Of a DNA stretch of 51,194 nucleotides, positions 7,071-46,466 are shown in pieces; the stretch's first letter is position 1; every line of letters starts with the position of its first letter. Source of the stretch: an uncultured Spirochaetota bacterium (GTDB taxonomy: Bacteria > Spirochaetota > B62-G9 > DRHN01); NCBI GenBank assembly GCA_964460545.1, contig CAYWUT010000007.1, positions 1 through 51,194 of the forward strand. The letters are read 5' to 3'. Under the pieces are notes generated by a model. The model had not been told where the DNA came from, ran no database searches, and worked only from the letters and a program-made list of their open reading frames with translations. The position numbers and the translations under genes were made by a program.

Positions 7071-8607
7071 ATATCCAGTCCCTCCCGTCCCTATCGAGCA
7101 GTTTCTCCGATTCCGCGGGGCCCCAGGACCCGGCAGGATAGGTGAGGATTCGCGCCGCGTTTTTATTTTCTTCGCTCTCCCAGCTCTCGAGTACCGGTGT
7201 GATGAGAGACCATGAGACCCGCATATCGTCGTGCCGTATGAAAAGGGTCTGGTCTCCAAGCATGGAATCGAGCAGGAGGCGCTCGTACGCCTCGGGGAGT
7301 CCTTCCGTGATTACGTCGCTGTAGTGAAAGTCCATTTCAAGGGTATCCATGCACAGTTTCGGGCCGGGATGCTTGGCCTGTATGGCGAGCGATATTCCCT
7401 CCTCGGGCTGAACCCTGAAGATAAGGATATTGGGATTCAGGTCGTCTGAGGTGAGCGGGCGAAACATGGAATGGGGTACGGGTTTGAAAGTTACGATAAT
7501 CTTGCTCGTTCTACGGGCCAGGCGCTTGCCCGCACGCAGGTAGAAGGGGACGCCCTGCCATCGCCAGTTATCCACCATGACACGGGCCGCGACGAATGTC
7601 TCGATCCTGGAATCCGGATTTACACCCTCCTCGTCCCGGTAACCGGGTACCGATTCGCCGTTTACCTTTCCGGTAACGTACTGCGCGCGGACGAGGTCTT
7701 CCGTACCGTCCCCGCCAAGCGGTCGCACTGCCCTGAGAAGCTTCACTTTCTCGTCGCGCACCCGGTCCGCGTCGAAGGAAATGGGATGTTCCATGGTTAC
7801 GAGGGAAAGCATCTGGAGCATGTGGTTCTGGAACATGTCTCGCAGAAGCCCGGCCTGCTCGAAGTAGCCGGCGCGATGGCCGACGCCGTCGGATTCGGCG
7901 ACCGTGATCTGGACATTGTCGATATACCTTCGGTTCCAGATCGGCTCGAATATGGCGTTCGCGAACCGGAAGAGGAGTATGTTCTGCACCGTGTCCTTGC
8001 CCAGGTAATGGTCAATCCTGTATATCTGCCTTTCCGAGAGGACCTCGTTGAGTGAGCGGTCGAGCTCCATTGCGCTTGTCAGATCCCTGCCGAAGGGTTT
8101 CTCAACGATCACGCGTGCCTCGATGAGGGGCCCCGAGTCGTCGATCGTGAGGCGGGAGTTTCCCAGCCCCTCAATGATCTTCAGGTTGACGCCCGGAGGG
8201 GTCGCGAGATAGAAGATGTGGTTCCTCTCTGGAAGGCAGCGTTTGTCGAGCGTTTTAAGACGAGACCCGATGTCCCTGAAGAGCGAGGGGTCGCCGTAGT
8301 CTCCTGAAACGTAGAAACAGCGGTCAATGAACGGTTTGAGCTCGGATTCGCCCGCGTTCTGAGATTTTATCAACGCCTCCCGCGCCCGCTCCCTGAAGGT
8401 TTCGTCGGTGAGCCTGCTTCTTGCGCAGCCGAGAATGTAGAACTTGCCGGGTAAAAGTTTTTTTCTATACAGGTTAAAGAGCGAGGGGATGAGCTTCCTG
8501 GAGGTAAGGTCCCCGGACGCGCCGAAAATGACGAATCCCGCGGGTTTGGGGATCTCCTCCACGCAGAAGGAGCCCCTGATTTTTACGGAGCCGTGCATGG
8601 GATCCAT
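7063..8607 (-). CDS. zwf: Glucose-6-phosphate 1-dehydrogenase
   Basis: [50 protein letters not shown]. Confidence 0.97.
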
Positions 8608-11861: not shown

Positions 11862-14060
11862 CTATGCATTCCGAGCCCTGGGGGCGATTTTTCTCCGCTT
11901 GCTTGTCTCCAGGAGCTTCCACTGCACGGTCGGAATTTCGTCGATATCCTCTTTCGGGATGAGGAAAATCTTCGCGTCCGAGGAGGGCACGGCCGTGAGC
12001 ATTTCAGGCTCATCGAACAGTATCGTCTCCTCCCCGAAAAAGTCACCGGAATGAAGCTCCGCGACGAGGCTGCCGCCTGAGGAGAGGTTGATTTTTCCCT
12101 GCTCCACGATAAAGAGCGCCGGCGGATCCTCGGGTTTGACGGGCTCGTCAGCCGCGTAGGACTTTCTCGTCATGATTCCCGCTATCTCGTTCTGTATGGG
12201 GCAGGAGACCATCTCGCCGAAAAGCCAGGTATTTTGTAAAAACCGCCTGTTTTCGAGCACGCGCCTGATCGTATCGTAGAGGTAGTTTCGCTTGATGAAG
12301 CTGATGTAGAGGTCCGAGGGTATTTTCAGTGCCCTGATGTAGCTCGCGGCCCGGTATGTCCGTGTAGTCTTCTCGCCGCTCAAGGCCGAGAGCTCACCCA
12401 CGATGGAACCGGCCGACAGCATGTTCCGAATATCGGTTTCCGCATCGATGAATTCCACTACCCCGCTCAGCAACAGGAAGATGTCCTTGTTTACAATTCC
12501 CCGTTTGATGATGATCGATCCTATATTGTGCGATACCACGGGGCAGTTCATCAGCATGTGCAGGTCGTGCATGGACGCCTTGGGGAAGTAGGACCTGAGG
12601 TGGTAGAAGGCGGAACGCATGGAATAATCCTGCTGCGCCGGAATGAGAACGTCCTCCATGCCGAAGGTCGCGTTCGCTCCGATCTCCTTCTGAGAATCCG
12701 TGAGCGGCACCGAGGTATGGCTCAGCACTATCTTGGGAGAGGTGTCGTTTACGAAATCTTCGGCTTTGCCGTGTATGAGGCCCCCGCCTATGTCGATCTT
12801 CTTGATATCAACGGGCGTGAAATAAATTTTCTTCACATTGTCATAGAATTCCTGTGACACCCCGCTCTTTTTCGGATCGTCCGTTATCATTCCTTTCAGG
12901 ACGTCGAGTGATACGATATCCGCGAGGTGTGCGTACGTCTTGTATCCGCCGCCCCAGAGTGTGCGAAAGAAGAATATGCTCGTTTCAACCGGATGGGGGG
13001 AGAACACGGGCATGACCTCGAGTCCCTTGATCGAGTTCCATCGGTTGAACTTCAAGTCGAAAATCTTGAAGTACCGCTCGAACCGCTCCTCTTTTATGGA
13101 CATGAGCGCTGAGAGTTTTTTCATAACCGACACGCGTACAAGCTTCGGCGCATAGTACTTGATCTTGTGGTCCGACCGGACGAGGGTGGTGAGACCGGCG
13201 AAGTGGTCGTCGTGGACATGACTGTGGAAGATACCCTCGATCTCGTTGACGCTGATTCCGAGCGCCGTGAGGCTGTATAAGATGTTGGGTCCGGCGTCCA
13301 GAAGGTAGATCTTCCCCTGATAGGTGAGTATGCTGCCCATGCAGGGTCGGTTCGTGTCCCAACCGTCCCCCTCGCCGATATGGATCACTGAGAAGTACTC
13401 ACGTCTGATTTCGTGAAACCCGAGATTGTAGGAGGGTTCGTATTTCTGGTTGGGCGCAAGGTTCAGGTCAACGGGCACGGTTTCGTCCTTGTAAGAGAAC
13501 TCGTACACGTTGAATGCGGTACGGCGAATCGTGACACCTCCTCTCAGCTCGACCGGGTCCTCACGCACGATACGGAAATCGATGAGCTCTTCGGTTTCGC
13601 GTATATTGTCGAATGCGAATTTCAGCTTCAGGCGAAACATATCCTGCGCACAGTCATCGGGGACACCGGTTTTGTGGATCTCCTCCATTGACTTCAGACC
13701 GTAATTTCCACGGTATATGTACTGACTCTGGGCGTTGACCTGGTCTTCCGTACCGATGAGCATGGGCTTTATTCCCGTGTTGTTCGGATGGTTCGGGAGA
13801 AGAATGCCCTGTCTGTAGAACATCTGGAGAACCGGAAACTCGGCGAGATTTGAGAAGCTTCCCTTTTGCACGGGTACGTCGGAGAGGAGTATGGCGTTTG
13901 GTCCTGTCTCGAAGGTGACTCCGTTTTTTTCCTTTGATACGATGAGCCCTCTTTTCATGAGGTGCTTCACACTGTCGGCGGGACAGCCGCAGAGCACGTA
14001 GAGGTTTGCTTCAGGGATTTCGACGTAGTATACGCCGCTCGTTACCTCGATTTTCTCCAT
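11862..14060 (-). CDS. Metallo-beta-lactamase-fold protein with two C-terminal cyclic-nucleotide-binding domains
   Basis: LLDAG, HSHVHDDH and PHPVET MBL motifs; GSIVGELSAL...RT and GDFFGEETIL cNMP-domain motifs. Confidence 0.75.
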   Translation of the reverse strand: MEKIEVTSGVYYVEIPEANLYVLCGCPADSVKHLMKRGLIVSKEKNGVTFETGPNAILLSDVPVQKGSFSNLAEFPVLQMFYRQGILLPNHPNNTGIKPMLIGTEDQVNAQSQYIYRGNYGLKSMEEIHKTGVPDDCAQDMFRLKLKFAFDNIRETEELIDFRIVREDPVELRGGVTIRRTAFNVYEFSYKDETVPVDLNLAPNQKYEPSYNLGFHEIRREYFSVIHIGEGDGWDTNRPCMGSILTYQGKIYLLDAGPNILYSLTALGISVNEIEGIFHSHVHDDHFAGLTTLVRSDHKIKYYAPKLVRVSVMKKLSALMSIKEERFERYFKIFDLKFNRWNSIKGLEVMPVFSPHPVETSIFFFRTLWGGGYKTYAHLADIVSLDVLKGMITDDPKKSGVSQEFYDNVKKIYFTPVDIKKIDIGGGLIHGKAEDFVNDTSPKIVLSHTSVPLTDSQKEIGANATFGMEDVLIPAQQDYSMRSAFYHLRSYFPKASMHDLHMLMNCPVVSHNIGSIIIKRGIVNKDIFLLLSGVVEFIDAETDIRNMLSAGSIVGELSALSGEKTTRTYRAASYIRALKIPSDLYISFIKRNYLYDTIRRVLENRRFLQNTWLFGEMVSCPIQNEIAGIMTRKSYAADEPVKPEDPPALFIVEQGKINLSSGGSLVAELHSGDFFGEETILFDEPEMLTAVPSSDAKIFLIPKEDIDEIPTVQWKLLETSKRRKIAPRARNA

Positions 14061-14182
14061 ACGTATTACCCCGTCTTCACAGTATTCCTTATAATAAGTA
14101 TATACCATATGAAATATTTAACAGCGATTTTATATATTTATAATTATTATGTATTTTCTCTTCATGTGGTGCCGAAGGGCTC

Positions 14183-15825: not shown

Positions 15826-17670
15826 TTAGGCTTTTGAAACGAGGTCGATTCTTACTATCTCGGTTCCCGTGCCCGTTATCAGAGAACCGTCGTCGAGCGG
15901 TATGACCGTACCGGCGGTTATGGGTTCAAGTCCGGGTACCGGGTCCCGTATTATTGATTCAGATTCGGTATCGTACTCACATAAAACCCCGTTTACCGTG
16001 AATACCACCGTATTCGTCTTCCGGTCACGGCAGAGATTCTTCACGGCTCCGGTTTCAAACGAGGATTCGAAGAGTGTCTCCTGGGTGCGAATAGCAAGGA
16101 CTCCGAACTTTGATATATTTCTTTTTCCGGTTAAACCACTGGCTTCCGTGTGAGTCCCGATGAAGATTCGGTCTTCATCCACGGCAAGGGATTGTATCCC
16201 GCGCGTACCGAGAGGATTCTCTATGATTTCCGTTCGTGAGGTTACGGGATCCGTGATTGCGATGGCCCCTCCGAATTTACCATACCTGCCGGAGTATCCG
16301 GAGTACAACCGTCCGTCGGGTCCAACCAGTATTCTGCTCGGCCTTATATATCCGTAGGCGTCCATCTTGAAAATGGACCGGGGGTTTTTACCACCCAGCT
16401 GGTCCCAGGGCTGTGTCGGATCGTATCTGATGAGCTCGCCGTCCGGATAAGAGACCGCATAAACGACATTGTCTGCGAATGCAATATCATAGATCTCTCC
16501 CATTTCGTCGCTCATAACATCGGTATTTACGACCTCGTGTGTCCGTACATCATAATGGAAGAGCGTTTGACCGAACCAGGGTCCTCCCCAAATCTTTCCC
16601 TGCCGATCTGCTTTGATAAAGAGCGGTGGGCGCGCGTGTGTCTTCACCGGAATATCCGTCAGCCGCAGTTTATGTGTGCCTTCATCAACAATGAAGTAGG
16701 ACTGTCCTCGTACGCCGACGATGCGGCCGTCCCGCAACGACCCGATATAACGGTCCCCTTTCAGATTTATACTGGCGAAGAGTTCTGTTCCACTGTCCTC
16801 GTCAGTGCTGCTGAAACGGAGTAACGCGTTGCCGCGGGTGAAGTAGAGAGCGTCTTTCGTTGTAAGATCCTTTTGGATCTTGAAAGAACCGCGTCCCGGG
16901 AGCTCAAAGGGGTACTCCTCCAGGGCCGTCCAGGATGCATCCTCAAACGCCTCCACCCTGTCGGTTCTGGGATCGAAGGCGATTACATACCTGTCCCACG
17001 CCGTTACATTGCTGAAATACCGGCCGGATTCTAATCCGGGGATTTTTTTCCATGTTCCTGTGCGCGGGTCGTATGAAATCGTCATCATATTTTCATAGCC
17101 TGAGTTTGCAACGATGGTTCCCCACGGAGTAGCCGTTACTGAAAAGAGATAGAGGTTCGGTTCGACGGGGGCGGGAATCGTTTCTAATGTGAAAGTATCG
17201 AGATCCAGTGCGCAGAGTACTGCTCCGGGATAGGTGCCGCCGTAGATCCGTCCGTCCGGGCCCGCGGAAAGATTCCAGATGTAACTTTCTCCCGGTATAT
17301 CGATGTCCTGTATGGTTTGTTTCTTTCCAAGATCGAAGACTATGAAATGACCGTTATAAAACGTGCCCATTACGAGCAGATTACCGGACACCTGTCGGAT
17401 ATCCCATGATCCGGATCCGGAAGGGAGGGTAAACAGATCACCGATGCCGCCGGTGAAATCAATGGAGATCATTTCACATCCGTGGATTTCGTTGTTGCTG
17501 AGCAGTACGAGCCGCTCTCTCCCATCCACGGGATCGATCGCCACACATCCACCGAGTATCTGCTTCGATCGACAAGGCTGTGCGATCCATACAACGGAAT
17601 ATGCTCCCGCTTCGTGTGATTGTGTGATGAAGAGGATGACCGCTGCTATCAGAATAGTGCGTATCTTCAT
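15826..17670 (-). CDS. Exported multi-bladed beta-propeller protein; probably truncated by an in-frame TAA (full frame ends at 15694)
   Basis: Signal peptide; repeated GPDGRIYGGTY / ADRQGKIWGG / GPDGRLYSG blade motifs; reading frame stays open and blade-like for 43 codons after the stop. Confidence 0.75.
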   Translation of the reverse strand: MKIRTILIAAVILFITQSHEAGAYSVVWIAQPCRSKQILGGCVAIDPVDGRERLVLLSNNEIHGCEMISIDFTGGIGDLFTLPSGSGSWDIRQVSGNLLVMGTFYNGHFIVFDLGKKQTIQDIDIPGESYIWNLSAGPDGRIYGGTYPGAVLCALDLDTFTLETIPAPVEPNLYLFSVTATPWGTIVANSGYENMMTISYDPRTGTWKKIPGLESGRYFSNVTAWDRYVIAFDPRTDRVEAFEDASWTALEEYPFELPGRGSFKIQKDLTTKDALYFTRGNALLRFSSTDEDSGTELFASINLKGDRYIGSLRDGRIVGVRGQSYFIVDEGTHKLRLTDIPVKTHARPPLFIKADRQGKIWGGPWFGQTLFHYDVRTHEVVNTDVMSDEMGEIYDIAFADNVVYAVSYPDGELIRYDPTQPWDQLGGKNPRSIFKMDAYGYIRPSRILVGPDGRLYSGYSGRYGKFGGAIAITDPVTSRTEIIENPLGTRGIQSLAVDEDRIFIGTHTEASGLTGKRNISKFGVLAIRTQETLFESSFETGAVKNLCRDRKTNTVVFTVNGVLCEYDTESESIIRDPVPGLEPITAGTVIPLDDGSLITGTGTEIVRIDLVSKA

Positions 17671-17941: not shown

Positions 17942-20893
17942 ATGAAGAAAGATAAGCAGATAAAAACTGTCGACTATCAAGTTCTCTTTCAGAATGCACC
18001 TGATATGCTTTTTCTGCTCGATGAAGATTTGCACGTGCTCTTCGTCAATGAAACAGCTTCTGCAGCGCTTGGACTGGATAAGGGGGAAATCATGGGTTCG
18101 GATTTTCTCAGCCTTGTTTACAGTGCGGATCAAGACCTCATCCGGAGTATCGTTCACCCTGTTGATGAGAAGAACAATAACCACGAGTTCCGGCTGGTAC
18201 ACGGGAACGGATCGTTTTTCCGGGTATGCGGGACGTCGAGCAGGACGGTTGCCGGGGGTGAAGGAAGCCTGCTTGTTGCGTGCAGGGGTATGGATGACTA
18301 CTGGGATCTAGGGAATACGATCGAAGAGGGTGTGCGTCGTTTCCCTAACGTCTTCGAGTATTCCCCGGACGCTATATTCATCGAGGACATAAATCGGCGT
18401 ATACTCGATGTAAATCCGGCGGCCTGCCGCCTTCACGGAATGACGCGTGATGAGCTGATCGGTATGGACGCCGCGGACCTTGTGCCGCCGGAGTATCGCG
18501 ATCTCGTTGCGGATGATTTCACGCTGCTCGCAAAAGACAAGGTCGAGCACATCGAAAACTTCAGTATCGGACCGGACGGCAGCCCGATCCCGGTCGAGAT
18601 CCGTATGAGCAGGATCCTGTATAATAACCGTCAGGCCCTTCTCCTCCACGTTCGGGAAGTTAGACAAAAAAGAGAGGCGGAGGAGCAAATACGGGCGCTC
18701 GCAAGATTCCCGAATGAAAATCCAAACCCCGTTCTTCGTCTGCTGAATGACGGTACCCTGATATATGCGAACGAAGCGGCCCTGCTACTACTTGAAGAAT
18801 GGCAATGCAGTGTAAATGACAAGGCCCCCGTCCATGTTATTCGTCATGTGTACGATGCCTGTGAAAAAAAGAAAAGTATCGAACGTGAGATAATGTGCGG
18901 GGACCGCGTCTGTTCCCTCGTGTTTACGCCCGTCGAAGGTGAGGATTATGTAAACATCTACGGGCTCGATATTACGGAGCAGAAAAAAAGCAGGGAGGTT
19001 CAGCAGCGTCTCATCTCTCTCATAGAGAGCAGCAACGAGTTTATCGGACTGACCGACATGAAGGGAAGGGTCCTCTATCTCAATGAGGCGGGTATGAATC
19101 TCTGCGGCGTTGATACAATTAATGGAGATAAGTCCCTCACCATAGAGAATTTCGTACCGGAGGAGGGTAAGGCATACCTCCGCGACATCCTGATGTCGTC
19201 CCTTTTAAAAGACGGTCATTTTAAAACCCGCAAGTATATCAGACATTTGAAGACCGGTGAGCGTATCGATGTTGAGATAAATGTCTTCCTGATAAATGAC
19301 GGAGGGGGGAATCCCACTCACATCGCAGTCGTCATAAACGATATACGCGACCGGATAAGAAGGGAACGCGAGATAAGGGAAACCGAGGAGAGGTTCAGGA
19401 GGCTTGTCGGGACTGCGCCCATAGGCATCCTCCTTGCCGACTCCACCGCGAATATCCTCGTTGTGAACGATGCATGCGCGCAAATTTTCGGATATTCCGT
19501 ACAGCAGATGAAGGAAAACAATTTTCTGGACCTGATACCCGAAGATTCCCGTGAGCTGGCGCTCGATATTCGCGAGAAGCTCAACAGCGGTTCCGATATG
19601 CGCAACAGGGAATTCCTGATTACGAAACAGGATGGAGGAAACGTTCCTGTTGAGGTGTCCGTGTCCACGATAAGGGATGAGAAAGAAAAGGTTACAAACT
19701 ATATCGCGCTCATTCGTGATATTTCCCAGCGAAATGAGCTCCAGCGCCAGCTCAACCAGTCCCAGAAGATGGAGGCGGTCGGTTTGCTCGCGGGTGGTGT
19801 GGCACACGACTTCAATAATATTCTGAGCGTCATCATCGGGTATAGTGATTTTATACTTACAAAACTCGATGATGATGATACGCTGTCTCCCTTTGTACAG
19901 GAGATCAGAAAGGCCGGAAACAGGGCGGCATCTCTCACCCACCAGCTTCTCGCGTTCAGCAGGCGTCAGATGTTGAGATCCAGGGTGCTCGATCTCAATG
20001 TACTCGTTTCGGATATGGAGAAAATGCTCCAACGTCTCATCGGCGAGGACGTCGAGCTCATTACCAATTTGGACGGATCGGTGAGCAAGCTGAAGGCGGA
20101 CCACGGCCAGATCGAGCAGATCGTCATGAACCTTGCGGTGAACGCACGTGACGCGATGCCCGAGGGCGGAATCCTGACCATAAAGACGGAAAACAGGACG
20201 GTGGACGAGGAACACTGCAGGGTCGTCCCCGATGCATCCACGGGCGTTTTCGTGCTCCTTTCCCTGTCGGACACGGGTTTTGGCATGGCGGACGATGTAA
20301 GCGCGCATATATTCGAACCCTTTTTCACAACCAAGAGAGAGGGAGGAACCGGCCTCGGTCTCTCAGTCACCTATGGTATCGCCAAACAGCACGGAGGTTG
20401 GATTGAAGTCAGAAGCACTCCCGGCAAGGGCTCCACATTCGAAGTGTACCTGCCCGCGTTGCTGCATGAGGAAGCGGAAGAGGTCGTAATCGATATTCCG
20501 GACGATACCGTTCGCGGAAAGGGAGAGCGGATACTCGTGGTTGAGGATGAGGATATGCTTCGTACCTTCGCACAGGGCGCGCTCTCGGACAAGGGTTATT
20601 CGGTCCTGACAGCGTCATCCTATAGTCAGGGAATCGATCTGTTCAGGAAAGAGGAGGGCCGTTTTGATCTTGTTTTCAGTGATGTGGTCCTTCCTGATAA
20701 AACGGGTCTCGACCTCGTAAACGAATGCAGGTCGATCAAACCATCCGTCAAGGTACTTCTTACAAGCGGCTATCTCGACCAGAAGTCGCAGTGGAACGAG
20801 ATCAGGAACCGCGGGTACCGGTTCATGGAGAAGCCCTATTCGCTCGTTGAAATGTTTTCCACAATCGATGATTTGCTGAGAAATCAAGTGTAA
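17942..20893 (+). CDS. Cytoplasmic hybrid sensor histidine kinase (about 5 PAS, HisKA, HATPase, REC)
   Basis: Repeated PAS starts (APDMLF, SPDAIF, NPNPVL, SNEFIG, APIGIL); AHDFNN H-box; NLAVNARDAM; DTGFG; FEPFFTTK; GTGLGL; VVEDE...SDVVLP receiver. Confidence 0.93.
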   Translation: MKKDKQIKTVDYQVLFQNAPDMLFLLDEDLHVLFVNETASAALGLDKGEIMGSDFLSLVYSADQDLIRSIVHPVDEKNNNHEFRLVHGNGSFFRVCGTSSRTVAGGEGSLLVACRGMDDYWDLGNTIEEGVRRFPNVFEYSPDAIFIEDINRRILDVNPAACRLHGMTRDELIGMDAADLVPPEYRDLVADDFTLLAKDKVEHIENFSIGPDGSPIPVEIRMSRILYNNRQALLLHVREVRQKREAEEQIRALARFPNENPNPVLRLLNDGTLIYANEAALLLLEEWQCSVNDKAPVHVIRHVYDACEKKKSIEREIMCGDRVCSLVFTPVEGEDYVNIYGLDITEQKKSREVQQRLISLIESSNEFIGLTDMKGRVLYLNEAGMNLCGVDTINGDKSLTIENFVPEEGKAYLRDILMSSLLKDGHFKTRKYIRHLKTGERIDVEINVFLINDGGGNPTHIAVVINDIRDRIRREREIRETEERFRRLVGTAPIGILLADSTANILVVNDACAQIFGYSVQQMKENNFLDLIPEDSRELALDIREKLNSGSDMRNREFLITKQDGGNVPVEVSVSTIRDEKEKVTNYIALIRDISQRNELQRQLNQSQKMEAVGLLAGGVAHDFNNILSVIIGYSDFILTKLDDDDTLSPFVQEIRKAGNRAASLTHQLLAFSRRQMLRSRVLDLNVLVSDMEKMLQRLIGEDVELITNLDGSVSKLKADHGQIEQIVMNLAVNARDAMPEGGILTIKTENRTVDEEHCRVVPDASTGVFVLLSLSDTGFGMADDVSAHIFEPFFTTKREGGTGLGLSVTYGIAKQHGGWIEVRSTPGKGSTFEVYLPALLHEEAEEVVIDIPDDTVRGKGERILVVEDEDMLRTFAQGALSDKGYSVLTASSYSQGIDLFRKEEGRFDLVFSDVVLPDKTGLDLVNECRSIKPSVKVLLTSGYLDQKSQWNEIRNRGYRFMEKPYSLVEMFSTIDDLLRNQV

Positions 20894-38619: not shown

Positions 38620-39426
38620 TTGTTCACCGCCGGGCATCGGGCCCGAATTTCGAGTGCGGATTTGCGCTTGACACCTCTATTCAGAGCGGTTGCCGATCTC
38701 TTCAGCGCTCTTGTGAACCTTCTTTTTCCAAACAGGTGCTTTTTCTGCGGGAGGCCCACGGACGGGGTGGTCTGCCCGGATTGCATGGAAAATTTAAAAC
38801 GTGCGGGACGGAACTGCTGCCTCAGATGCGGGGCCCCTGTGACGGGTGAAAGCGGAGCAGTGTGCGATCAATGCAGGGATATGCAGTTCGTGTTCACACG
38901 GAATGAATCGATCGGCGTGTATGGAGGGGAAATCCGGGATCTCATACGGCTCTACAAGTTTACCGGGAGGAGGTCCCTGGCATCGGTATTCGCCCGGCTC
39001 GCGCTTGCCGAGAAGAAGATGTATATCGAACGTCACGATGTGCTCGTCCCCGTTCCATTGACGAGGAGGAGACACCATGAGAGGGGATTCAACCAGTCCG
39101 CACTTTTGGCGCACCGTATAAGCAGGGGGATATCGACACCTCTCCTGGTCCGGGCTCTCTGCAGGAGGGGGAATGCGCTTCCTCAGTCAAGTATCACATC
39201 TCTTGCACAGAGAAAGGGAAATATGACCGATAGGTATTATGTACGGAAACGGGTTTGGAATCGTCTGTCGGGTCTAAACGTACTCCTTGTCGACGATGTT
39301 TTAACAACGGGTGCCACCGCTTCGGCATGTGCAAAGGCCCTCTATTGCGCGGGTGCGGTCAACGTGGATCTTTTTACGATTGCACGAGCGGTGAAGGAAA
39401 CTGTTCCCGGTGAGCGCTTCGGCTAG
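38620..39426 (+). CDS. comF: ComF family (double zinc ribbon + phosphoribosyltransferase-like)
   Basis: LFP.RCFFC..C / CLRC..CDQC, VPVPL...R..ERGFNQS, VLLVDDVLTTGAT; start uncertain (TTG 38620 or 38668). Confidence 0.88.
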   Translation: MFTAGHRARISSADLRLTPLFRAVADLFSALVNLLFPNRCFFCGRPTDGVVCPDCMENLKRAGRNCCLRCGAPVTGESGAVCDQCRDMQFVFTRNESIGVYGGEIRDLIRLYKFTGRRSLASVFARLALAEKKMYIERHDVLVPVPLTRRRHHERGFNQSALLAHRISRGISTPLLVRALCRRGNALPQSSITSLAQRKGNMTDRYYVRKRVWNRLSGLNVLLVDDVLTTGATASACAKALYCAGAVNVDLFTIARAVKETVPGERFG

Positions 39427-39653
39427 CGGTATTATTTACTTTTATGGAAAAAGACCGATAATTAGAGCGAATTTCGAATCGTGAAAATATACTTAATGGA
39501 GGGCTTTCACATAGAGAGGACATACTGTTTCCCGTGAACTTCTGGAGTTGTTTATAATAATATGGAGATGATTATTATGCTTAATTACCGTTGCATGGCA
39601 TATAAAGAGCTCGAAGTTCACCCTCATTAAGCGAATTCACACGGGTCCGGGCA

Positions 39654-42041
39654 ATGGCAAAACTAATAATTCGATATCCAAACAACGTCATCAATGAAGT
39701 TGAATTCGAGCAGCCGAAGTATACGATAGGCACGGCCGAAGACAACGATCTCGTGCTCACGGGGGTTGAGGTGTCCCCCCATCAGGCCGAGATATACACC
39801 GCTGGCGGCGCCTATTCTCTCGTCGATGTCTCCGAAAACAACAACACGTCCGTAAACGGGAAGAAGGTAGAAAGGGTAAACATCACCTATGGGGACAGGA
39901 TCAGTTTCGCGAATATCGTCGGTCTCTTCTACCCGTCCAAAAAAGGGCAAATGGCGGACAAGACGAAGGTTATCCTCTATCTTGCGGCCGGAGCCGGAGT
40001 AATACTCGTATCCATCGCACTCATATTCTTCCTGACAACGCGGCAGATTTCCTCGGTCGTTTCAGGCGGTATCGGAGAAGCGTTCCAAACGGACGAGGTT
40101 CCTGCCGAAACGGTACAGGAGGAACCGGTTACTCGAAGAGCTCGAGAGCCCCGTGTCCGGGAAAGCGGAAGGGCCGAGAGACCGGACCGTGTTGAAAAAG
40201 CCTTCAATCTTAATATTTTCAAAGGTCGTGATCTGGAGCTCCCGCAGCCGCCGGTAAATGCGGTACGGAAGCGGGCCGCGACAGCCGTACCCACGGGACT
40301 GAGGAGGCTCTTCTTTCGAAAAATTCCCGTGCCCGTTGTTCTTTCCGGAGAAACACCGGTGTCTGCTCCGGAGGATGTTCCCGCGGCAGAGACGGCCGTC
40401 CAGGCCGATACGGCCTATACGGGTGAAGATCTTGATGCGCTGGAAGCCTTGCCCGAGGAGGAAAAGAAGGGGGTATTCGGCAGAATCGTTTCTCCGTTCA
40501 GGAGGTTGTTCGGATTAGAGGAAGCCGTGCCTCTTGAAGCGGATACGGGGGAGGAAGGCCCGGACGAGGCCGGGGCGGAGCAGATCGCCGTTCCCGCGAG
40601 TCCGTCCACACCTGCCATTGAGCCGGAAAAACCTTCGGACGAGGACGTAAAGCGGGTCACCGATCCGCTCGAGCCCGTGCGTAAGAGGGATATTGCGGGA
40701 ATACGGGAGGATATGTTCGAGGAAAAGCCCGTGTACAGTGAAAAGGAGATCGAACAGTACAGGAGCGATTATTCACTTTCGGACATCCCTGTTTCCGCCA
40801 GCGAAGGACTGAACATCGATATTCTCTGGAAGTATCCGGAGATACCGGAGGAAACGGGAAGCGTCATCAGGTCGGGAGCGTTCGGAATTGTCGATGACGA
40901 CAAGGTCTTCGATTATCTGTACGGAACCGCTGAAGGGGACCTCGTGCTGCTGGGCGGCGCAACAGGGCAGGAGCTCCTGAGAGAAGAAATGCAGGGACCC
41001 TTTTTCGAGCCCGTGCTCTGCGATTTCGACGGCGACAGGCGGGATGATATCCTCATAATCTATGAAAGCGGGGATATCGAAGCGATGAGCTTCGAGCTCG
41101 ACCGCCTGTGGTACTACGTGGGGGGAGACAGAATAACGGCACTGCCGCTCCTCAACGATGCGAACGGGGACGGCACGCCTGATATCATATTCGCGACCTT
41201 CGGCATGGAAATCGTTGCGGTAGATGGAACGAACGGTTTCGAGCTGTGGCGTTTCAACGATATAGAAAGTGAGATCATTTATCCGCCCGTCGGTGTGGAC
41301 ATCAACGACGATTCGATTCGGGACGTGGCGTTTGTAACGGTAAACGGCTCCCTGCACGCGATCGACGGAAGCAACGGGTGGGGTATCTGGAAAAGAAATA
41401 TCTTTGGAAAGCCGGCGGGGCCGTGTTCCGCGGGCGATATCGACGGGGACGGCGAATACGACCTCGTTTCGTTGACGAGGAGCGGCACGATCTCGGCTTA
41501 CGGCGGAGACGGTCAGCTGCATTTCAGGTGGGAAACACAGTCCTCGCACAACGTACCGCCCACTCTGGGAGACACGGACGGTGACGGGACCGTGGATATC
41601 GTTCTGATAGATGTGGACGGTAAAATAACGGCCATGGAAGGGGCAACCCGGAGAGAGAAGTGGGTTTATGAAACCGAGGAAGGATTTTCGCTTACCCGGC
41701 CCGCTCTCGTCGATATCGACGGCAGCGGGAGTATGGACGTGATCGTCGGTTCGGCCTCGGGCGCGCTCAGTATCATCGAGGGCGAATCCGGCGGCCTGCT
41801 GGCGCTTTTCAACAGCCGGGGGTATCTGTTCGCATCGCCCGTAGTGCGTGATATCAACAGGGACAGGATACTCGAAATTCTGATCGCGAACTACGGCGGA
41901 GAGGTCTATGCGCTGCAGGCGACCGATACCCGTACGGGATTCTTTACATTAAGGAGATCTTCCTGGGCGAACCCGCATCATGATATGTGGAATACCGGTT
42001 TTGCCCGGCGGAATTTTATAGTATCGCTTCGTAAGAGATAG
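39654..42041 (+). CDS. Membrane protein: degenerate FHA, TM helix, acidic linker, FG-GAP/VCBS beta-propeller
   Basis: N-terminal FHA-like strand pattern; TM VILYLAAGAGVILVSIALIFFL; repeated DxDGDGxxD loops (DFDGDRRDD, DANGDGTPD, DINDDSIRD, DIDGDGEYD, DTDGDGTVD, DIDGSGSMD, DINRDRILE); C-terminal W..PHHD.WNTG. Confidence 0.8.
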   Translation: MAKLIIRYPNNVINEVEFEQPKYTIGTAEDNDLVLTGVEVSPHQAEIYTAGGAYSLVDVSENNNTSVNGKKVERVNITYGDRISFANIVGLFYPSKKGQMADKTKVILYLAAGAGVILVSIALIFFLTTRQISSVVSGGIGEAFQTDEVPAETVQEEPVTRRAREPRVRESGRAERPDRVEKAFNLNIFKGRDLELPQPPVNAVRKRAATAVPTGLRRLFFRKIPVPVVLSGETPVSAPEDVPAAETAVQADTAYTGEDLDALEALPEEEKKGVFGRIVSPFRRLFGLEEAVPLEADTGEEGPDEAGAEQIAVPASPSTPAIEPEKPSDEDVKRVTDPLEPVRKRDIAGIREDMFEEKPVYSEKEIEQYRSDYSLSDIPVSASEGLNIDILWKYPEIPEETGSVIRSGAFGIVDDDKVFDYLYGTAEGDLVLLGGATGQELLREEMQGPFFEPVLCDFDGDRRDDILIIYESGDIEAMSFELDRLWYYVGGDRITALPLLNDANGDGTPDIIFATFGMEIVAVDGTNGFELWRFNDIESEIIYPPVGVDINDDSIRDVAFVTVNGSLHAIDGSNGWGIWKRNIFGKPAGPCSAGDIDGDGEYDLVSLTRSGTISAYGGDGQLHFRWETQSSHNVPPTLGDTDGDGTVDIVLIDVDGKITAMEGATRREKWVYETEEGFSLTRPALVDIDGSGSMDVIVGSASGALSIIEGESGGLLALFNSRGYLFASPVVRDINRDRILEILIANYGGEVYALQATDTRTGFFTLRRSSWANPHHDMWNTGFARRNFIVSLRKR

Positions 42042-42098
42042 GCTGGATAACGTATCGCTTTTTTATTCAGATAAAACCATGAGTATGGAAAACGTAAG

Positions 42099-44582
42099 AT
42101 GATTGACCTGAGAAAACCATGTACAGTTCTATGTGCGGTCCTGCTGCTTTCAGCCGTATTCGCTCCGCCGGCATTTTCATCAAAAAAGAGAAAGGCGCAG
42201 CAGGTAGAGCCGGCCGAAGAATCGGCCGAAGAATCGGCTGGGGAGGCTCCCGTTGAGTTTCCCCCCTTTACCGTGGGCGAGGTACTGAATCCCCCGGAGG
42301 AGGAGGAGGAGGAGGAGGAAGAACCCGCCGGTGACCTCAGGGGAACGGTAATAGATGAAAAGGGGGAACCCGTTCAGGGAGTGCTCATTACCTGCCTGGG
42401 TGAAAGCGGCATTATTATCGCCCATGACGTAACGGATGAAAACGGGGCATATGATTTCAGCGCGCTTCCGACCGGGAACTACACCATCAATGTGGATTAC
42501 AGCGGGTTCTCGTCACCCGTGGAGGTCTCTTTCGGTGAAGAAATGGGGCGGCCGCCCATACCGACGGGACTGCAGGTGAGCGAGGTAATGGTCTCGGATT
42601 CGGGCCAGTCAATAATACGGGTGGCCTGGGACCGGATGAAGAACGTAACGGGTTATAAGTGCGCGCTCTATCTCAGGGGGCAGAGTACTCCGATCCAGGA
42701 ATATCCCGATATGAAGCAGAACCATGTGGAATTCGGCAAGTTGAAAGAGGATACCGAATACCAGATAAGGGTTTATTCCAAGAATCCGAACGGCTATTCC
42801 TCGTCGTACAGGGTCGGTATAATACGAACGAAGAACCGTCCGCCTCTCCCGCCGTATGGTATCGGTGTTCTGTCCGCGATCAATAACGCGGTCGAAATCG
42901 TATGGAGAGCCCCGGATTGCGAGGACCTGGCCGGTTATCTGATTCAGATCAGAAAGGAAAACGGCAGATATCTCTACTATGCGAAGGACAAACTCACCGG
43001 GGCCGGCACCGAGGCCTTCGTCGTACGGCCGAGCGGCGATGAGTACGAGAGTATTTATATAGAAGGCATGCTTGAGGATGGAACGCCCGTCCTTGAGAAT
43101 ACCATGGAATATTCTTTCAAGTTCTACTCGATTGACCGGAGCGGCATGCTGAGCACTTCTTCGCCCGAAATTCAGCATATCGTACTGGAAGATACCATAC
43201 CGCCCAGGCCGCCCCGTGATGTTTTTTACGAATTCGTGGATGAAAACATGCTCCGAATAAGCTGGAAAAGGGCGGACCGCGATACCGACCGTTACGCGTT
43301 ATACTACGGTGTTACGCGAGACCGTTGGGACGAAGTCGTGTATACGAAGAAGAACACACACGAGCTCCTGGTCGACCGGGAGAAGCTGGCGAGCAGCAGC
43401 CTCTACCTGTCGGTCGTTGCTATCGACCGGGCCGGGAATGAGAGCGGTTACATGCCGGTCAAGAAGGCGACGACCGTTGCGGCGGGCAGGACCGTAACGG
43501 AAGACATCGTCTTTTCCTCTTCAGGGCTCTACAGGGACTACTCCGAAGCGATCAGGGAGCCTCCCGTGAAGAAGGCTCCGCCGAAAAAGAAGGTTGTTAA
43601 ACCCGCTCCTCCTCCGAAGCCGACCCGCTACGGTATCGATTATTTACGGGAAAAGGGCTACGTGGTCGAGGACGGGGAAACCGCGATACTGTCCGGGGAC
43701 CTCCTGTTCCCTGTCGACGCGCTTATAATGGTGAAGTCCGGAGGAAAACTGGAGATACGGGACGCGAAGCTCACTGCCTCCGACGGGCTGTGGGGAGGAA
43801 TAAGGTTTACGGGGGGTTCCCGGGGCACGATCCAGGACTCCAGCGTGCGGAGCGCGGCCATCGGCATCGGGATCATCGGGTGCCGTGATTCAGTACAAAT
43901 GAGAAATGTCAAGGTGTCGGATTGCGTTGAAAAGGGAGTGTATATAAAGGACAGTTCCGTATCACTCTCGATTCTGACGGTCTATGATAATCCGACAGGA
44001 ATGTTTGTTGAGAACAGCAGTGTCATCGTGGATAATTCCTCCTTCTATAAGAATACGAGGGGACTCACGGTTGTAAATTACAGCCTGAAAGTAAGCGACT
44101 CGCTTTTCAGGGATAACGGATCATACGGTCTCCGGCTTTACGGAGGCGGAACGGTGGAACGCTGCATTTTCAGCCATAACCTGGTGGGCGCGGTTCTCGA
44201 TCAGGGAAAGGGAAGTCCGCGGCTGATCGGTAATACCGTGAAGCATAACGCCATGGACGGCATCGTGGTGTCCACTGAAAACGGGATGCTTAAGAATAAT
44301 ATCATCGCGTTCAATGGAAGGCACGGTATATACAATAAGGATGATGCCAATCCCGTTATCCTCCAGTCGGATATCCTGAACAACGTGAAGTACGGGATCA
44401 CGGGAGGGGGTGTCGTCAGAAACTGCCACATCGCGTACAACAACGGCAGCGTGTATATCGACGATACCGGTTTGAAAGGGAAACAGGACAATGTACTCAG
44501 CTCGTCCTCGGCGGGCGTGATAAAACAGATACTCAATGCGGACCTCATAGAAGGGCTGTCCTACGTTCCGATCGTGCAGTAG
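42099..44582 (+). CDS. Exported protein: carboxypeptidase-regulatory-like domain, about 3 FN3 domains, C-terminal right-handed beta-helix
   Basis: Signal peptide; GTVIDEKGEPVQGV..TDENGAYDF..LPTGNY; P.PTGL..W..Y FN3 patterns; DTIPPRPP; Asn/Gly-ladder pectin-lyase-like repeats. Confidence 0.75.
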   Translation: MIDLRKPCTVLCAVLLLSAVFAPPAFSSKKRKAQQVEPAEESAEESAGEAPVEFPPFTVGEVLNPPEEEEEEEEEPAGDLRGTVIDEKGEPVQGVLITCLGESGIIIAHDVTDENGAYDFSALPTGNYTINVDYSGFSSPVEVSFGEEMGRPPIPTGLQVSEVMVSDSGQSIIRVAWDRMKNVTGYKCALYLRGQSTPIQEYPDMKQNHVEFGKLKEDTEYQIRVYSKNPNGYSSSYRVGIIRTKNRPPLPPYGIGVLSAINNAVEIVWRAPDCEDLAGYLIQIRKENGRYLYYAKDKLTGAGTEAFVVRPSGDEYESIYIEGMLEDGTPVLENTMEYSFKFYSIDRSGMLSTSSPEIQHIVLEDTIPPRPPRDVFYEFVDENMLRISWKRADRDTDRYALYYGVTRDRWDEVVYTKKNTHELLVDREKLASSSLYLSVVAIDRAGNESGYMPVKKATTVAAGRTVTEDIVFSSSGLYRDYSEAIREPPVKKAPPKKKVVKPAPPPKPTRYGIDYLREKGYVVEDGETAILSGDLLFPVDALIMVKSGGKLEIRDAKLTASDGLWGGIRFTGGSRGTIQDSSVRSAAIGIGIIGCRDSVQMRNVKVSDCVEKGVYIKDSSVSLSILTVYDNPTGMFVENSSVIVDNSSFYKNTRGLTVVNYSLKVSDSLFRDNGSYGLRLYGGGTVERCIFSHNLVGAVLDQGKGSPRLIGNTVKHNAMDGIVVSTENGMLKNNIIAFNGRHGIYNKDDANPVILQSDILNNVKYGITGGGVVRNCHIAYNNGSVYIDDTGLKGKQDNVLSSSSAGVIKQILNADLIEGLSYVPIVQ

Positions 44583-44626
44583 TAGGATAATTGACGGACT
44601 AAAAAGGGTAGAACGGGTAGCGCCTC

Positions 44627-46357
44627 ATGAATAGGGAGATACAGAATCGGTTTCATCTGCTCATGCAAGTCATCAGGGATACGGGCAGGAGGCTTGCCGC
44701 CTTATGTCTGATTTCAGCCGTTGCGGTGGTTTTCGTTTTTATCGGCGGTTCCTGCTGGTTCCTCTTTCATAATTATGAAAGAATGAACCGTACCTATTAC
44801 GCGGCGATGTTCAGGGACGTTTTCCTCTTTCAGCAGGATATTATCCGTAAGGACGGCTATAAGAATGATGTGCATGACGCGGCCGTGGCCGTAAGCAGGC
44901 AGCGGGGAGTGGTGAATGTCTGGTTCACGGACAGGGACGGAAGACTCCTCTACCATACGGACAGGAATTTCTACTCCGAATACGGCGCGAGGAGGCTTCC
45001 GGCCGAGTTTTACGAGAGTATTCGAACGGTGTGGCGGTTCAGCGAAGGGTTTCCTGCAGTTAATACGACCCCCATCGATATAAAAACACTCAGGATGAGC
45101 ATGCCGCTCTATCCGTTCGGCAACGATGAAGCCGATTTCATCATGGGTATGGATGCAAGACGGTTTATATTTGTGCCTGAGAACCTGAGCTACGCCATAC
45201 TGATCGGCGCGGGTTTTATCGTCGTTTCGGTAATCATTCTTTTCCTTCCCCTCTTTATGATTCTGCGTAACAAAATGAAACAGCTTACGACACAGGTCAG
45301 AACAGCGGCAGGGGCCGTCCTAGCCGCTCCCGAAGCCGGTCCAGGGGAAGAGGTCGTTAGACCGGAAGGTGTAGCGGAACCGACCGGGGAGGAGGTCGTT
45401 AGACCGGAAGGGGTGGCGGAACCGGCCGGGGAGGAGGTCGTTAGACCGGAAGGGGTAGCGGAACCGGAAGAACCTCGTGAGGAGCCGATGGCCGCCGTTA
45501 CCGGGAAACCGACCGGGGAGGAAGCGGAACCGGCCGGGGAGGAAGCGGAACCGGCCGGGGAGGAAATCGCCAAGCCGGAAGAGACCGGGGGAAAAGAGGT
45601 CGCTGCCGGGACGGAAACACGGCCCGTCATCGGGCGTGAGGAATTCATGAAAATAAGGGAGGAGGTTTTCGGCAAGCGTACCATCGAGCTTCCCTTTGTA
45701 CAGGCAAGCAATTATGTTCTCGACTCGCGGGAGGTGGGCGGAGATTATATATTCCACGCGAAGTCGGGAGAGGGTAAAGCCGACGTCCACTTTTACATAG
45801 GATACTCCACCCCCGCGTCCGGGGAAAGCGCGGTCCCCACGATGACGCTCATGATAGGAGAAGAACTGAAGAAACTGGCTGAGGACGGTGCACCGCTCCG
45901 GACACTCTTCAACGGCTGCAATCGCCTCTGCATTGAGAATAAAATATCCCTGGATCTCTCCGTTATCAGGTTCGAGGGCGATACGAAGAAGGTCGAATAT
46001 GCCGCGGGAGGGAACGGTAAGGGCCTCTATCTCAAGAGTGGAAACGGGGAGGTAAAAGAGCTTCTCCTCGAATCACCCCGGCCCGGAACAACGGAGGAGG
46101 GCGGATTCTCTGAATCCATCTCCGTAGCGGAGCTCCGTTTTAACAGCGAAGATATATTCGTGCTTATTCCCGCCAAGACCGCCGGAGCGGCTCCCGGAGG
46201 TACGTCTTTGGAAGAGATTCTCCGTTCCGAAATTCTGAAAAGCCGTGATTTGAGCGCTCAGACGATCGGAATGGAGGTCGTGGGCAGGTTTGAGGAGGCT
46301 GTTGCAGGAGGAGAGGCCCTCCCCAGGGCGGGTTTTGTGGTCGTTAAATACCTTTGA
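44627..46357 (+). CDS. Membrane protein: Cache-like periplasmic domain, Pro/Glu repeat linker, degenerate PP2C/SpoIIE-like domain
   Basis: Two TM helices flanking VWFTDRDGRLLYHT; REVGGDY and VEYAAGG SpoIIE-like motifs; other metal-binding Asp motifs absent. Confidence 0.65.
   Translation: MNREIQNRFHLLMQVIRDTGRRLAALCLISAVAVVFVFIGGSCWFLFHNYERMNRTYYAAMFRDVFLFQQDIIRKDGYKNDVHDAAVAVSRQRGVVNVWFTDRDGRLLYHTDRNFYSEYGARRLPAEFYESIRTVWRFSEGFPAVNTTPIDIKTLRMSMPLYPFGNDEADFIMGMDARRFIFVPENLSYAILIGAGFIVVSVIILFLPLFMILRNKMKQLTTQVRTAAGAVLAAPEAGPGEEVVRPEGVAEPTGEEVVRPEGVAEPAGEEVVRPEGVAEPEEPREEPMAAVTGKPTGEEAEPAGEEAEPAGEEIAKPEETGGKEVAAGTETRPVIGREEFMKIREEVFGKRTIELPFVQASNYVLDSREVGGDYIFHAKSGEGKADVHFYIGYSTPASGESAVPTMTLMIGEELKKLAEDGAPLRTLFNGCNRLCIENKISLDLSVIRFEGDTKKVEYAAGGNGKGLYLKSGNGEVKELLLESPRPGTTEEGGFSESISVAELRFNSEDIFVLIPAKTAGAAPGGTSLEEILRSEILKSRDLSAQTIGMEVVGRFEEAVAGGEALPRAGFVVVKYL
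45344..45466 (+). repeat. 42-bp coding tandem repeat x3 (GEEVVRPEGVAEP[T/A])
   Basis: Units start at 45344, 45386 and 45428. Confidence 0.9.
45515..45565 (+). repeat. 21-bp coding tandem repeat x2 plus partial (GEEAEPA)
   Basis: GGGGAGGAAGCGGAACCGGCC at 45515 and 45536, partial at 45557. Confidence 0.85.
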
Positions 46358-46363
46358 ATTATC

Positions 46364-46392
46364 TTGACTGACGGTTTAAATATTATTACAAT
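46364..46392 (+). promoter_or_regulatory. Sigma70-type promoter of the rimP operon
   Basis: TTGACT, 17 nt, TACAAT. Confidence 0.75.
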
Positions 46393-46426
46393 TTGTTAGC
46401 GATAGTATTGTAGACTGTGTTAGCTG

Positions 46427-46453
46427 AAGAGTCGCTGTGCCGACTCTTTTTTT
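46427..46453 (+). promoter_or_regulatory. rimP leader hairpin / attenuator-like structure
   Basis: AAGAGTCG-CTGTGC-CGACTCTT followed by a U-run, between the promoter and the rimP ATG. Confidence 0.7.
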
Positions 46454-46466
46454 ATTGTACGGACCA

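Follow-up and report, generated by a model that had tools for sequence, protein, structure and literature searches.

The inner-membrane protein CT589 of Chlamydia trachomatis, a paralogue of RsbU, combines a periplasmic domain with a PP2C-like domain that lacks the Mn2+/Mg2+-coordinating residues (PMC4552016). In SctD (YscD, PrgH, MxiG and CdsD), a cytoplasmic FHA domain without the phosphothreonine (pThr) motif serves as a protein-docking surface (PMC3635987), and GltG of Myxococcus xanthus, from the Agl-Glt gliding or bacterial focal adhesion complex, acts as a tether in an envelope-spanning complex (PMC11761067). Here we describe three adjacent genes, denoted g1, g2 and g3, at positions 39654-46357 of a 51,194-nucleotide stretch of contig CAYWUT010000007.1 from an uncultured Spirochaetota bacterium; this whole stretch is called the window below. 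Judged by their residues, the FHA domain of g1 has a degenerate pThr pocket and the PP2C fold of g3 has lost its catalytic site. We tentatively favor the reading, to which we give somewhat less than an even chance, that the trio is a lineage-specific operon for a phosphorylation-independent, inner-membrane-anchored envelope tether or scaffold complex.

The trio combines known design principles in a new way. It resembles the described systems in design only, and its gene context and periplasmic domains set it apart from these families. Our literature searches found no description of this three-gene combination, in agreement with the preliminary description of this DNA, which did not recognize it as a described system; the parts have precedents in CT589, SctD/YscD and GltG. 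In the case of CT589, g3 has the same design, but no sequence relationship between the two is detectable beyond the PP2C superfamily. Furthermore, CT589 adjoins an active RsbU in a genome with RsbV and RsbW, whereas g3 has no partner-switching genes nearby and carries a disordered repeat linker at the position of HAMP. With SctD, g1 shares an N-terminal cytoplasmic FHA domain, a single transmembrane (TM) helix and a periplasmic domain, and its match to Yop-YscD_cpl is above the cut-off. However, the periplasmic part of g1 consists of a long linker and an FG-GAP propeller without ring-building motifs, and no type III secretion system (T3SS) genes were found in the window or in the related loci. 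GltG is similar to g1 in its cytoplasmic FHA domain, TM helix, long disordered periplasmic extension and C-terminal globular domain, but its C-terminus is TonB-C-like, and it functions together with the AglRQS motor and numerous Glt proteins, all of them missing here. The NCBIfam model gliding_GltG matched g1 weakly (E 0.001), far below the model cut-off. An affiliation of g1 with T3SS, type VI secretion system (T6SS) or gliding machinery, as its YscD, TagH and GltG FHA matches would have it, was rejected since no other component is present.

Organization of the three-gene locus

Positions 39654-46357 hold three open reading frames (ORFs) on the + strand, with lengths given in amino acids (aa):

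39654..42041, + strand: g1, 795 aa, FHA domain, TM helix, long linker and seven-bladed FG-GAP propeller
42099..44582, + strand: g2, 827 aa, secreted protein with CarboxypepD_reg, three FN3 domains and a beta-helix
44627..46357, + strand: g3, 576 aa, TM helix, periplasmic domain, TM helix, repeat linker and pseudo-PP2C domain

The intergenic gaps are 57 bp between g1 and g2 and 44 bp between g2 and g3. The ORF coordinates agree with the preliminary description, which had reported three genes on the same strand with these gaps. It had also read g1 as FHA, TM, acidic linker and FG-GAP propeller and g2 as a secreted protein of CarboxypepD_reg, three FN3 domains and beta-helix; both architectures were borne out, that of g1 by Pfam, hydropathy and seven loop motifs, and that of g2 by the agreement of Pfam, the AlphaFold2 model and Foldseek.

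The C-terminal domain of g3 as a predicted pseudophosphatase

The features of g3 are as follows, with model confidence given as the predicted local distance difference test (pLDDT) of AlphaFold2:

44768..45190, + strand: periplasmic alpha/beta domain, aa 48-188 (invariant columns; pLDDT 77-93)
45329..45619, + strand: cytoplasmic disordered acidic linker, aa 235-331 (pLDDT <50; Tandem Repeats Finder, TRF)
45635..46354, + strand: cytoplasmic PP2C fold of the SpoIIE/RsbU type with the metal site ablated (profile search, Foldseek, Asp columns)

The region of aa 337-576 was modeled with the alpha-beta-beta-alpha fold of PP2C at a pLDDT of 80-95. In Foldseek searches, the full-length models were swamped by one domain each (PP2C for g3 and FN3 for g2), which yielded no fold for the g3 periplasmic domain or for the g2 beta-helix. 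The top 50 matches of g3 were all PP2C structures, and the fold of its C-terminal domain was matched at E-values from 4e-10 to 1e-7. The best match was RsbX (3w40; E 4e-10, target-normalised TM-score 0.77), and further matches included SpoIIE, Rv1364c RsbU, SiaA, PstP and RssB (3f79). When the g3 family profile was searched against 1.84 billion representatives, about 35 members were followed by a score gap and then by weak matches only, and nine of the ten remote matches tested were bona fide PF07228 SpoIIE proteins (E 5e-7 to 6e-4). The window g3 itself matched Pfam SpoIIE at E 0.035 and 14.5 bits, below the cut-off of 25, while a weak match was obtained for 14 of 25 g3 members, the best at 6e-5. 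g3 shares with SpoIIE, RsbU and RsbX the C-terminal fold, a homology detectable by profiles and the general layout of sensor, TM and PP2C, but differs in its Pfam SpoIIE score below the cut-off and in the lack of the catalytic Asp residues.

This loss was counted in an alignment of 23 g3 members with nine genuine SpoIIE domains, which covers the motifs GGDxxD, xGDvsGxG, TDG and DD. The six Asp columns that are invariant in SpoIIE hold Asp in 1, 0, 0, 0, 0 and 0 of the 23 members, while the structural Gly and the non-catalytic GD Asp are kept in 22-23 of 23. The sole member with Asp in the first column is P0001, a database copy that is 100% identical to the window g3. Considering that the catalytic Asp columns are lost while the fold-determining residues stay, the C-terminal domain of g3 is, as read from its residues, a pseudophosphatase.

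The N-terminal half of g3 contains TM1 (aa 23-47) and TM2 (aa 189-213), and the approximately 140 residues between them are well conserved, with the motifs W.TDR.G.L.YHTD, P.Y and DF..G.D. In the AlphaFold2 model, this domain runs through a long helix, a helix, two strands, two helices and three strands, an order compatible with a PDC/Cache-type fold. A Pfam scan of 25 g3 members gave a single weak match to dCache_2 (E 0.094), a PDB profile search with the periplasmic domain gave no relevant match, and hhalign against a protein of the sCache_3_2-HAMP-SpoIIE type returned a probability of 0.5%. Based on the model, the domain is probably alpha/beta and PDC-like, and its assignment to Cache is not proven. 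The earlier reading of g3 as TM, Cache-like domain, TM, repeat linker and PP2C-like domain therefore held for the TM helices, the repeats and the PP2C fold, while the sequence tests for Cache were non-significant and the predicted element order alone is compatible with it.

No HAMP domain follows TM2, and a segment of about 100 residues with low pLDDT takes its place. TRF located DNA tandem repeats in this linker, with a 42-bp unit in 3 copies at 45344-45467 and a 21-bp unit in 2.8 copies at 45507-45565. The g3 of the 93%-identical relative P0002 has 561 aa compared with 576 aa in the window and differs inside the repeat linker, which suggests that the repeat copy number is still changing.

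Alternatively, g3 could provide the output of a partner-switching or adaptor pathway, in which its pseudo-PP2C domain would sequester an RsbV/SpoIIAA-like or other cytoplasmic protein on a cue from the periplasmic domain, with g1 and g2 as accessory proteins. The closest active relatives of g3 are indeed sensor-phosphatases of the Cache-HAMP-SpoIIE or GAF-SpoIIE type, and precedents exist in CT589 and in the PP2C-like domain of RssB, which has an adaptor role and was matched by Foldseek (3f79). However, a STAS or anti-sigma gene was present in none of the neighborhoods examined, and the disordered linker of about 100 aa instead of HAMP argues against conformational coupling between sensor and output. 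We consider this pathway rather unlikely.

As a separate observation, g3 in the Joint Genome Institute contig L005 (5553-7111) is split into two overlapping ORFs of 320 and 210 aa. The g1 of L005 is identical to that of the NCBI metagenome-assembled genome (MAG) L004, in which g3 (6730-8418) is intact with 562 aa. The split reflects a frameshift or assembly error, or else a pseudogene at the population level.

The FHA domain of g1 and its phosphothreonine pocket

The features of g1 are as follows:

39654..39938, + strand: cytoplasmic FHA domain, aa 1-95 (Pfam, alignment to GarA)
39969..40037, + strand: single TM helix, aa 106-128 (hydropathy peak 2.64)
40038..40943, + strand: periplasmic linker, aa ~129-430, acidic and poorly conserved (conservation profile 0.19-0.45)
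40944..41978, + strand: periplasmic seven-bladed FG-GAP (integrin-alpha-like) propeller (Pfam, motifs, PDB profile)

Pfam assigned FHA to aa 23-85 (E 1.8e-12, 48 bits vs a cut-off of 20.7), and the cytoplasmic domain also matched Yop-YscD_cpl (E 7.6e-10, 39.4 bits vs a cut-off of 33.2). A phmmer search with the g1 FHA domain retrieved GarA, Rv1747, OdhI and EmbR at E-values from 1e-7 to 3e-3. When the domain was aligned with GarA, the pocket Arg of the window g1 was replaced by Thr27 and the His by Gln44, while Ser41 and Asn63 were kept, so that the motifs read Gly-Thr, Ser-x-x-Gln and Asn-Asn vs the canonical Gly-Arg, Ser-x-x-His and Asn-Gly. Among 31 g1 orthologues, the canonical residues occur as Arg in 9, Ser in 10, His in 3 and Asn in 4, and no single orthologue has more than two of the four. 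The FHA domain is nevertheless the best-conserved block of g1, with an identity of 0.75-0.82, and it is the pocket positions that vary within it. On these residues, the pThr pocket is degenerate, and the domain is under strong selection, though not for this pocket. An FHA domain is a binding module and not an enzyme. As such, the earlier claim that both signaling domains appear catalytically dead stands for the Asp loss of PP2C, and does not apply to FHA, although its pThr pocket is degenerate.

An FHA domain together with a membrane PP2C is a classical pairing, as in PpkA/PppA/Fha of T6SS and in the mycobacterial PstP/FhaA/FhaB. The trio could be a conventional Ser/Thr module with a distant Hanks-type kinase, in which the FHA domain of g1 reads pThr and g3 removes the mark; the retained Ser41 and Asn63 of the window g1 and the retained first Asp of the GGD motif in the window g3 would fit this arrangement. 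On the other side, the remaining metal Asp positions are replaced in the window g3 as in all 23 members, and the pocket of the window FHA domain has lost both Arg and His. Furthermore, no Pkinase, STAS or second PP2C domain was detected among the approximately 40 long ORFs scanned of the 51-kb window, consistent with the earlier statement that the window holds no Ser/Thr kinase. The window and the Pfam-annotated flanks of the related loci likewise contained no Hanks kinase, STAS, anti-sigma or active PP2C gene. We regard a conventional module as highly improbable. Because active site and pocket are both ablated and no kinase, STAS, anti-sigma or active PP2C gene lies nearby, a phosphotransfer role of the trio is very unlikely.

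The linker and propeller of g1

Since g1 has no signal peptide and basic residues precede its TM helix, the FHA domain is probably cytoplasmic, and the linker and propeller are probably periplasmic. Within the poorly conserved linker, conservation peaks at 0.65 at aa 201-220, and two conserved short motifs were found, LPEP..R.AVAIPRG.RRLFFRK at aa 194-226 and KG......SP...LF at aa 272-287.

The region of aa ~485-760 matched FG-GAP_3 (E 3.7e-15, 56.7 bits vs a cut-off of 26.9) and PQQ_2 (E 1.1e-12), and the PDB profile matches of the propeller were 6mlt, BamB, PQQ dehydrogenases and ITFG2. Seven D-x-[DN]-x-D-G-x-x-[DE] loops lie at aa 457, 502, 549, 595, 640, 687 and 733 with a spacing of about 46 aa, and these Ca2+-loop-like motifs are kept across the 31 orthologues. 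Seven evenly spaced loops are the signature of a seven-bladed FG-GAP propeller of the integrin-alpha type, which is thus predicted for g1 with putative Ca2+ loops.

g2, a secreted protein with FN3 domains and a beta-helix

The features of g2 are as follows:

42099..42179, + strand: signal peptide, aa 1-27, with no lipobox Cys at the cleavage region (hydropathy segment 4-28, sequence reading)
42330..43499, + strand: CarboxypepD_reg, aa 78-133, and three FN3 domains, aa 159-243, 253-362 and 373-467 (Pfam, AlphaFold2, Foldseek)
43680..44438, + strand: right-handed parallel beta-helix of the CASH type, aa 528-780 (Pfam; AlphaFold2 pLDDT >90)
44439..44579, + strand: C-terminal tail, aa 781-827, the last 47 residues (conservation vs pLDDT)

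After the signal peptide, an acidic low-complexity stretch precedes CarboxypepD_reg, and a Pro/Lys-rich linker lies between the FN3 domains and the beta-helix. The Ig-like and FN3 domains of the exported g2 are thus spacers ahead of its beta-helix. Pfam matched CarboxypepD_reg (E 8.8e-14), fn3, Beta_helix (E 2.6e-23) and NosD (E 7.8e-13). The AlphaFold2 model contains three FN3 domains by strand pattern, Foldseek aligned it with structures containing 3-4 tandem FN3 domains (E 1e-12 to 8e-14), and the PDB profile matches of the FN3 region were titin, fibronectin and SdrD.

The C-terminal tail has the highest conservation in g2 (column identity 0.78-0.80) and at the same time the lowest model confidence (pLDDT 24-37), and it is kept even in the most divergent contigs. 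Peptides that become ordered only upon meeting a partner typically combine high conservation with low pLDDT, and we propose the tail as a candidate docking peptide for partner binding.

A profile of the beta-helix alone matched the AlgG/AlgE alginate C5-epimerases at E 6e-5, through generic coil repeats only. Together with the NosD and Beta_helix matches, this raises the possibility of a system for periplasmic polysaccharide or peptidoglycan modification, in which g2 would be a CASH epimerase, lyase or hydrolase placed or regulated by g1 and g3. AlgG belongs to a periplasmic scaffold, and AlgG/AlgE resemble g2 in being right-handed beta-helices, periplasmic or secreted, whose coil repeats are alike. 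However, the likeness is confined to the repeats, the catalytic DPH(D/E) motif of C5-epimerases (YG(F/I)DPH(D/E)) was not found in the g2 sequence, and AlgG has neither CarboxypepD_reg nor three FN3 domains. Furthermore, a glycosyltransferase, polymerase or exporter gene is adjacent in no locus. A glycan-modifying system is therefore fairly improbable in our view. The specific assignment of g2 as an epimerase was set aside since the AlgG/AlgE match lies in repeats outside the catalytic coil and the DPH motif is absent.

Distribution and gene order of the trio

Each of the three families comprises 30-40 orthologue clusters with 25-50% identity in public metagenomes, after which the scores fall off a cliff. 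g1, g2 and g3 are genuine genes. All relatives of the three families were placed in uncultured Spirochaetota MAGs only, from sediments, hydrothermal sites and springs, and one complete 3.5-Mb chromosome is among them (CP070841.1, locus L011). Gene order was compared in 16 loci drawn from GTDB species representatives or from contigs retrieved directly, plus another 12 from metagenomes. The order comF-g1-g2-g3-rimP-nusA was invariant in every locus with a contig long enough, amounting to about 30 distinct loci, while the genes further upstream of comF differ between loci; the most divergent g3 members lie on contigs of 2-4 kb only. Synteny and co-occurrence in relatives had been proposed earlier as the check on the trio, and the trio was indeed adjacent and in the same order wherever the contig reaches, always confined to the same Spirochaetota clade. 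When metagenomes were scanned with an alignment of the g3 N-terminal region, only the same gene context was recovered, and the trio was not found at a new location.

The approximate median gaps across loci are 3 nt for g1-g2, 53 nt for g2-g3 and 185 nt for g3-rimP, and the called g1 and g2 genes overlap in L004. In L011, g3 and the rimP leader are kept apart by an inserted opposite-strand gene for a 232-aa multi-pass membrane protein (16721-17419, - strand). The insertion occurs in this species alone and displays that the g3-rimP junction can be interrupted. Based on the gaps, the conserved promoter and hairpin in the g3-rimP spacer (described below) and the L011 insertion, we treated g1-g2-g3 as one transcription unit, a conserved operon restricted to this clade and separate from the rimP operon. 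What speaks for an operon is that g1 and g2 lie about 3 nt apart, that the three genes share a phyletic pattern and that their topologies fit together.

The same data bear on the explanation that the three genes are functionally unrelated and adjacent through frozen order around rimP-nusA-infB. comF and rimP-nusA-infB-rbfA are as invariant as the trio, so that the adjacency is not specific to the trio and synteny alone cannot tell functional coupling from a frozen order. Against mere neighborhood, g1 and g2 are about 3 nt apart or overlapping in most species with g2-g3 at about 50 nt, all three are clade-restricted orphans of equal phyletic range, and their topologies complement each other, two binding modules lying in the cytoplasm and three modules in the periplasm. 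The region is also not wholly frozen, considering that the genes beyond comF vary and that L011 has its insertion after g3. We find unrelated neighbors quite improbable.

The comF-g1 gap has an approximate median of 87 nt and ranges from -8 to 337, and in L006 comF overlaps g1; comF is possibly co-transcribed with the trio in some species. This invariant upstream gene, which is less than 90 nt from g1 in about half of the loci, would be expected if the trio and comF formed an apparatus for DNA uptake (competence). However, in the window and several other loci comF and g1 lie 227-337 nt apart with promoter-like sites between them, comEC, comEA, dprA and pilus genes are not adjacent, and ComF homologues are widespread housekeeping-like genes. 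A competence apparatus is very improbable.

A possible envelope tether or scaffold

In topology, the trio would provide two cytoplasmic modules, FHA and pseudo-PP2C, and three periplasmic ones, the propeller, the g3 alpha/beta domain and the FN3/beta-helix protein. The long flexible linkers of the two membrane proteins, one periplasmic and the other cytoplasmic, suggest tethering, localization or scaffolding rather than rigid transmembrane signaling. In the tether or scaffold that we tentatively favor, the g2 beta-helix would bind a periplasmic glycan, either peptidoglycan or polysaccharide, and g2 would use its conserved tail, its FN3 domains or both to attach to the propeller of g1 or to the periplasmic domain of g3. 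In the cytoplasm, FHA and pseudo-PP2C would be protein-binding modules, for each other or for a common partner, and might act like the FHA domains of SctD/YscD and GltG and the pseudo-PP2C domains of CT589 and the RssB C-terminus. The preliminary description had proposed a trans-envelope apparatus or a phospho-independent signaling scaffold. The phospho-independent part is sensible given the loss of catalysis and of the pThr pocket, whereas the trans-envelope part goes beyond the evidence, with no sign of outer-membrane contact.

Several points weigh against the tether or scaffold. We infer every contact between the three proteins, and the models are of single chains. The disorder of the g1 linker is likewise drawn from composition and conservation, and glycan binding by g2 is suggested by its membership in families with Beta_helix, NosD and AlgG-like repeats. 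With regard to phosphorylation, the window g3 keeps the first PP2C Asp in the GGD motif, as does only its closest relative, residual phospho-recognition is possible in some g1 lineages given that Arg is kept in 9 and Ser in 10 of the 31 orthologues, and a kinase or a partner-switching set could be located elsewhere in the genome. Lastly, with flanking comF and rimP as invariant as the trio itself, the adjacency could be the frozen synteny of a narrow clade.

A bolder version is an undescribed envelope machine, in which an integrin/fibronectin-like receptor-ligand pair links some structure in the cytoplasm with the periplasm or cell wall, with no phosphotransfer involved. Here, the stalked, Ca2+-dependent g1 propeller would capture the g2 FN3/beta-helix protein through its conserved tail, and the cytoplasmic side would be made wholly of pseudo-FHA and pseudo-PP2C, so that the coupling would be mechanical or spatial. 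We judge this machine unlikely, though by no means far-fetched.

The PP2C family includes, to our knowledge, few bacterial pseudoenzymes, among them CT589 and the RssB C-terminal domain, and these are little understood. If the three proteins cooperate in a tether or scaffold, they would be a clear bacterial case of a whole FHA/PP2C signaling pair turned into non-catalytic binding modules, a conversion that would be maintained by purifying selection across a whole lineage. The spirochaete periplasm houses the flagella and sets cell shape, and the trio offers a compact three-gene system for learning how long flexible tethers, a propeller with Ca2+ loops and a putative glycan-binding beta-helix may be combined in this compartment. 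The practical value is limited at present, as the hosts are uncultured and no phenotype is available.

Neighboring genes and regulatory sites

Outside the three coding regions, the following features were located:

38620..39426, + strand: ComF-like gene with a double zinc ribbon and a phosphoribosyltransferase (PRTase)-like domain (Pfam DZR_2 E 1.5e-12)
39435-39462 and 39551-39578, + strand: two sigma-70-like promoter matches in the 227-bp AT-rich gap 5' of g1 (9/12 consensus each, pattern only)
46364..46457, + strand: g3/rimP boundary, promoter-like TTGACT-17-TACAAT at 46364-46392, then a hairpin with a T-run at 46426-46457 (consensus scan)

The flanks named in the preliminary description, comF and the rimP promoter, correspond to this ComF-like gene and to the conserved promoter-like site at 46364-46392, and rimP, nusA, infB and rbfA follow downstream of g3. 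The PRTase-like half of the ComF-like protein matched the PADLOC models ShosT (E 4e-11) and PsyrT (E 2e-7), most likely due to the common PRTase fold and not to a defense function. g1, g2 and g3 matched no PADLOC defense model at E <= 0.01.

Only two other signaling genes are recognizable in the window. One (11862-14108, - strand) encodes a 748-aa protein with a metallo-beta-lactamase fold and two cyclic-nucleotide-binding domains, and the other (17942-20893, + strand) a 983-aa hybrid histidine kinase with several PAS domains and a receiver domain. An ORF of 614 aa (15826-17670, - strand), which is not linked to the trio, has weak matches to Kelch and DUF6923 repeats and may encode a second protein of the beta-propeller type.

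The boundary element 5' of rimP recurs in every related locus (L001-L041). Neither CTTGAC nor the stem AAGAGTCGC...CCGACTCTTTTTTT varies in the alignment, and the promoter-like form in the g3-rimP spacer across species is CTTGAC-17-TAnnAT. In the window, the hairpin reads AAGAGTCGC-loop-CCGACTCTT followed by T7 and lies about 35 nt after CTTGAC-17-TACAAT (46363-46457 in all); its stem is nucleotide-identical across all related species, while the loop is variable. An Rfam search with the hairpin gave no match even at E <= 1. The hairpin at 46426-46457 resembles a terminator or attenuator in the leader of the rimP-nusA-infB operon and may have a role in NusA autoregulation; it would also halt read-through from g3. 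The mechanically called GTG start of rimP (46437) falls within this conserved hairpin. Translation more plausibly starts at the in-frame ATG at 46467, giving a protein of 152 aa that equals the called RimP length in L003.

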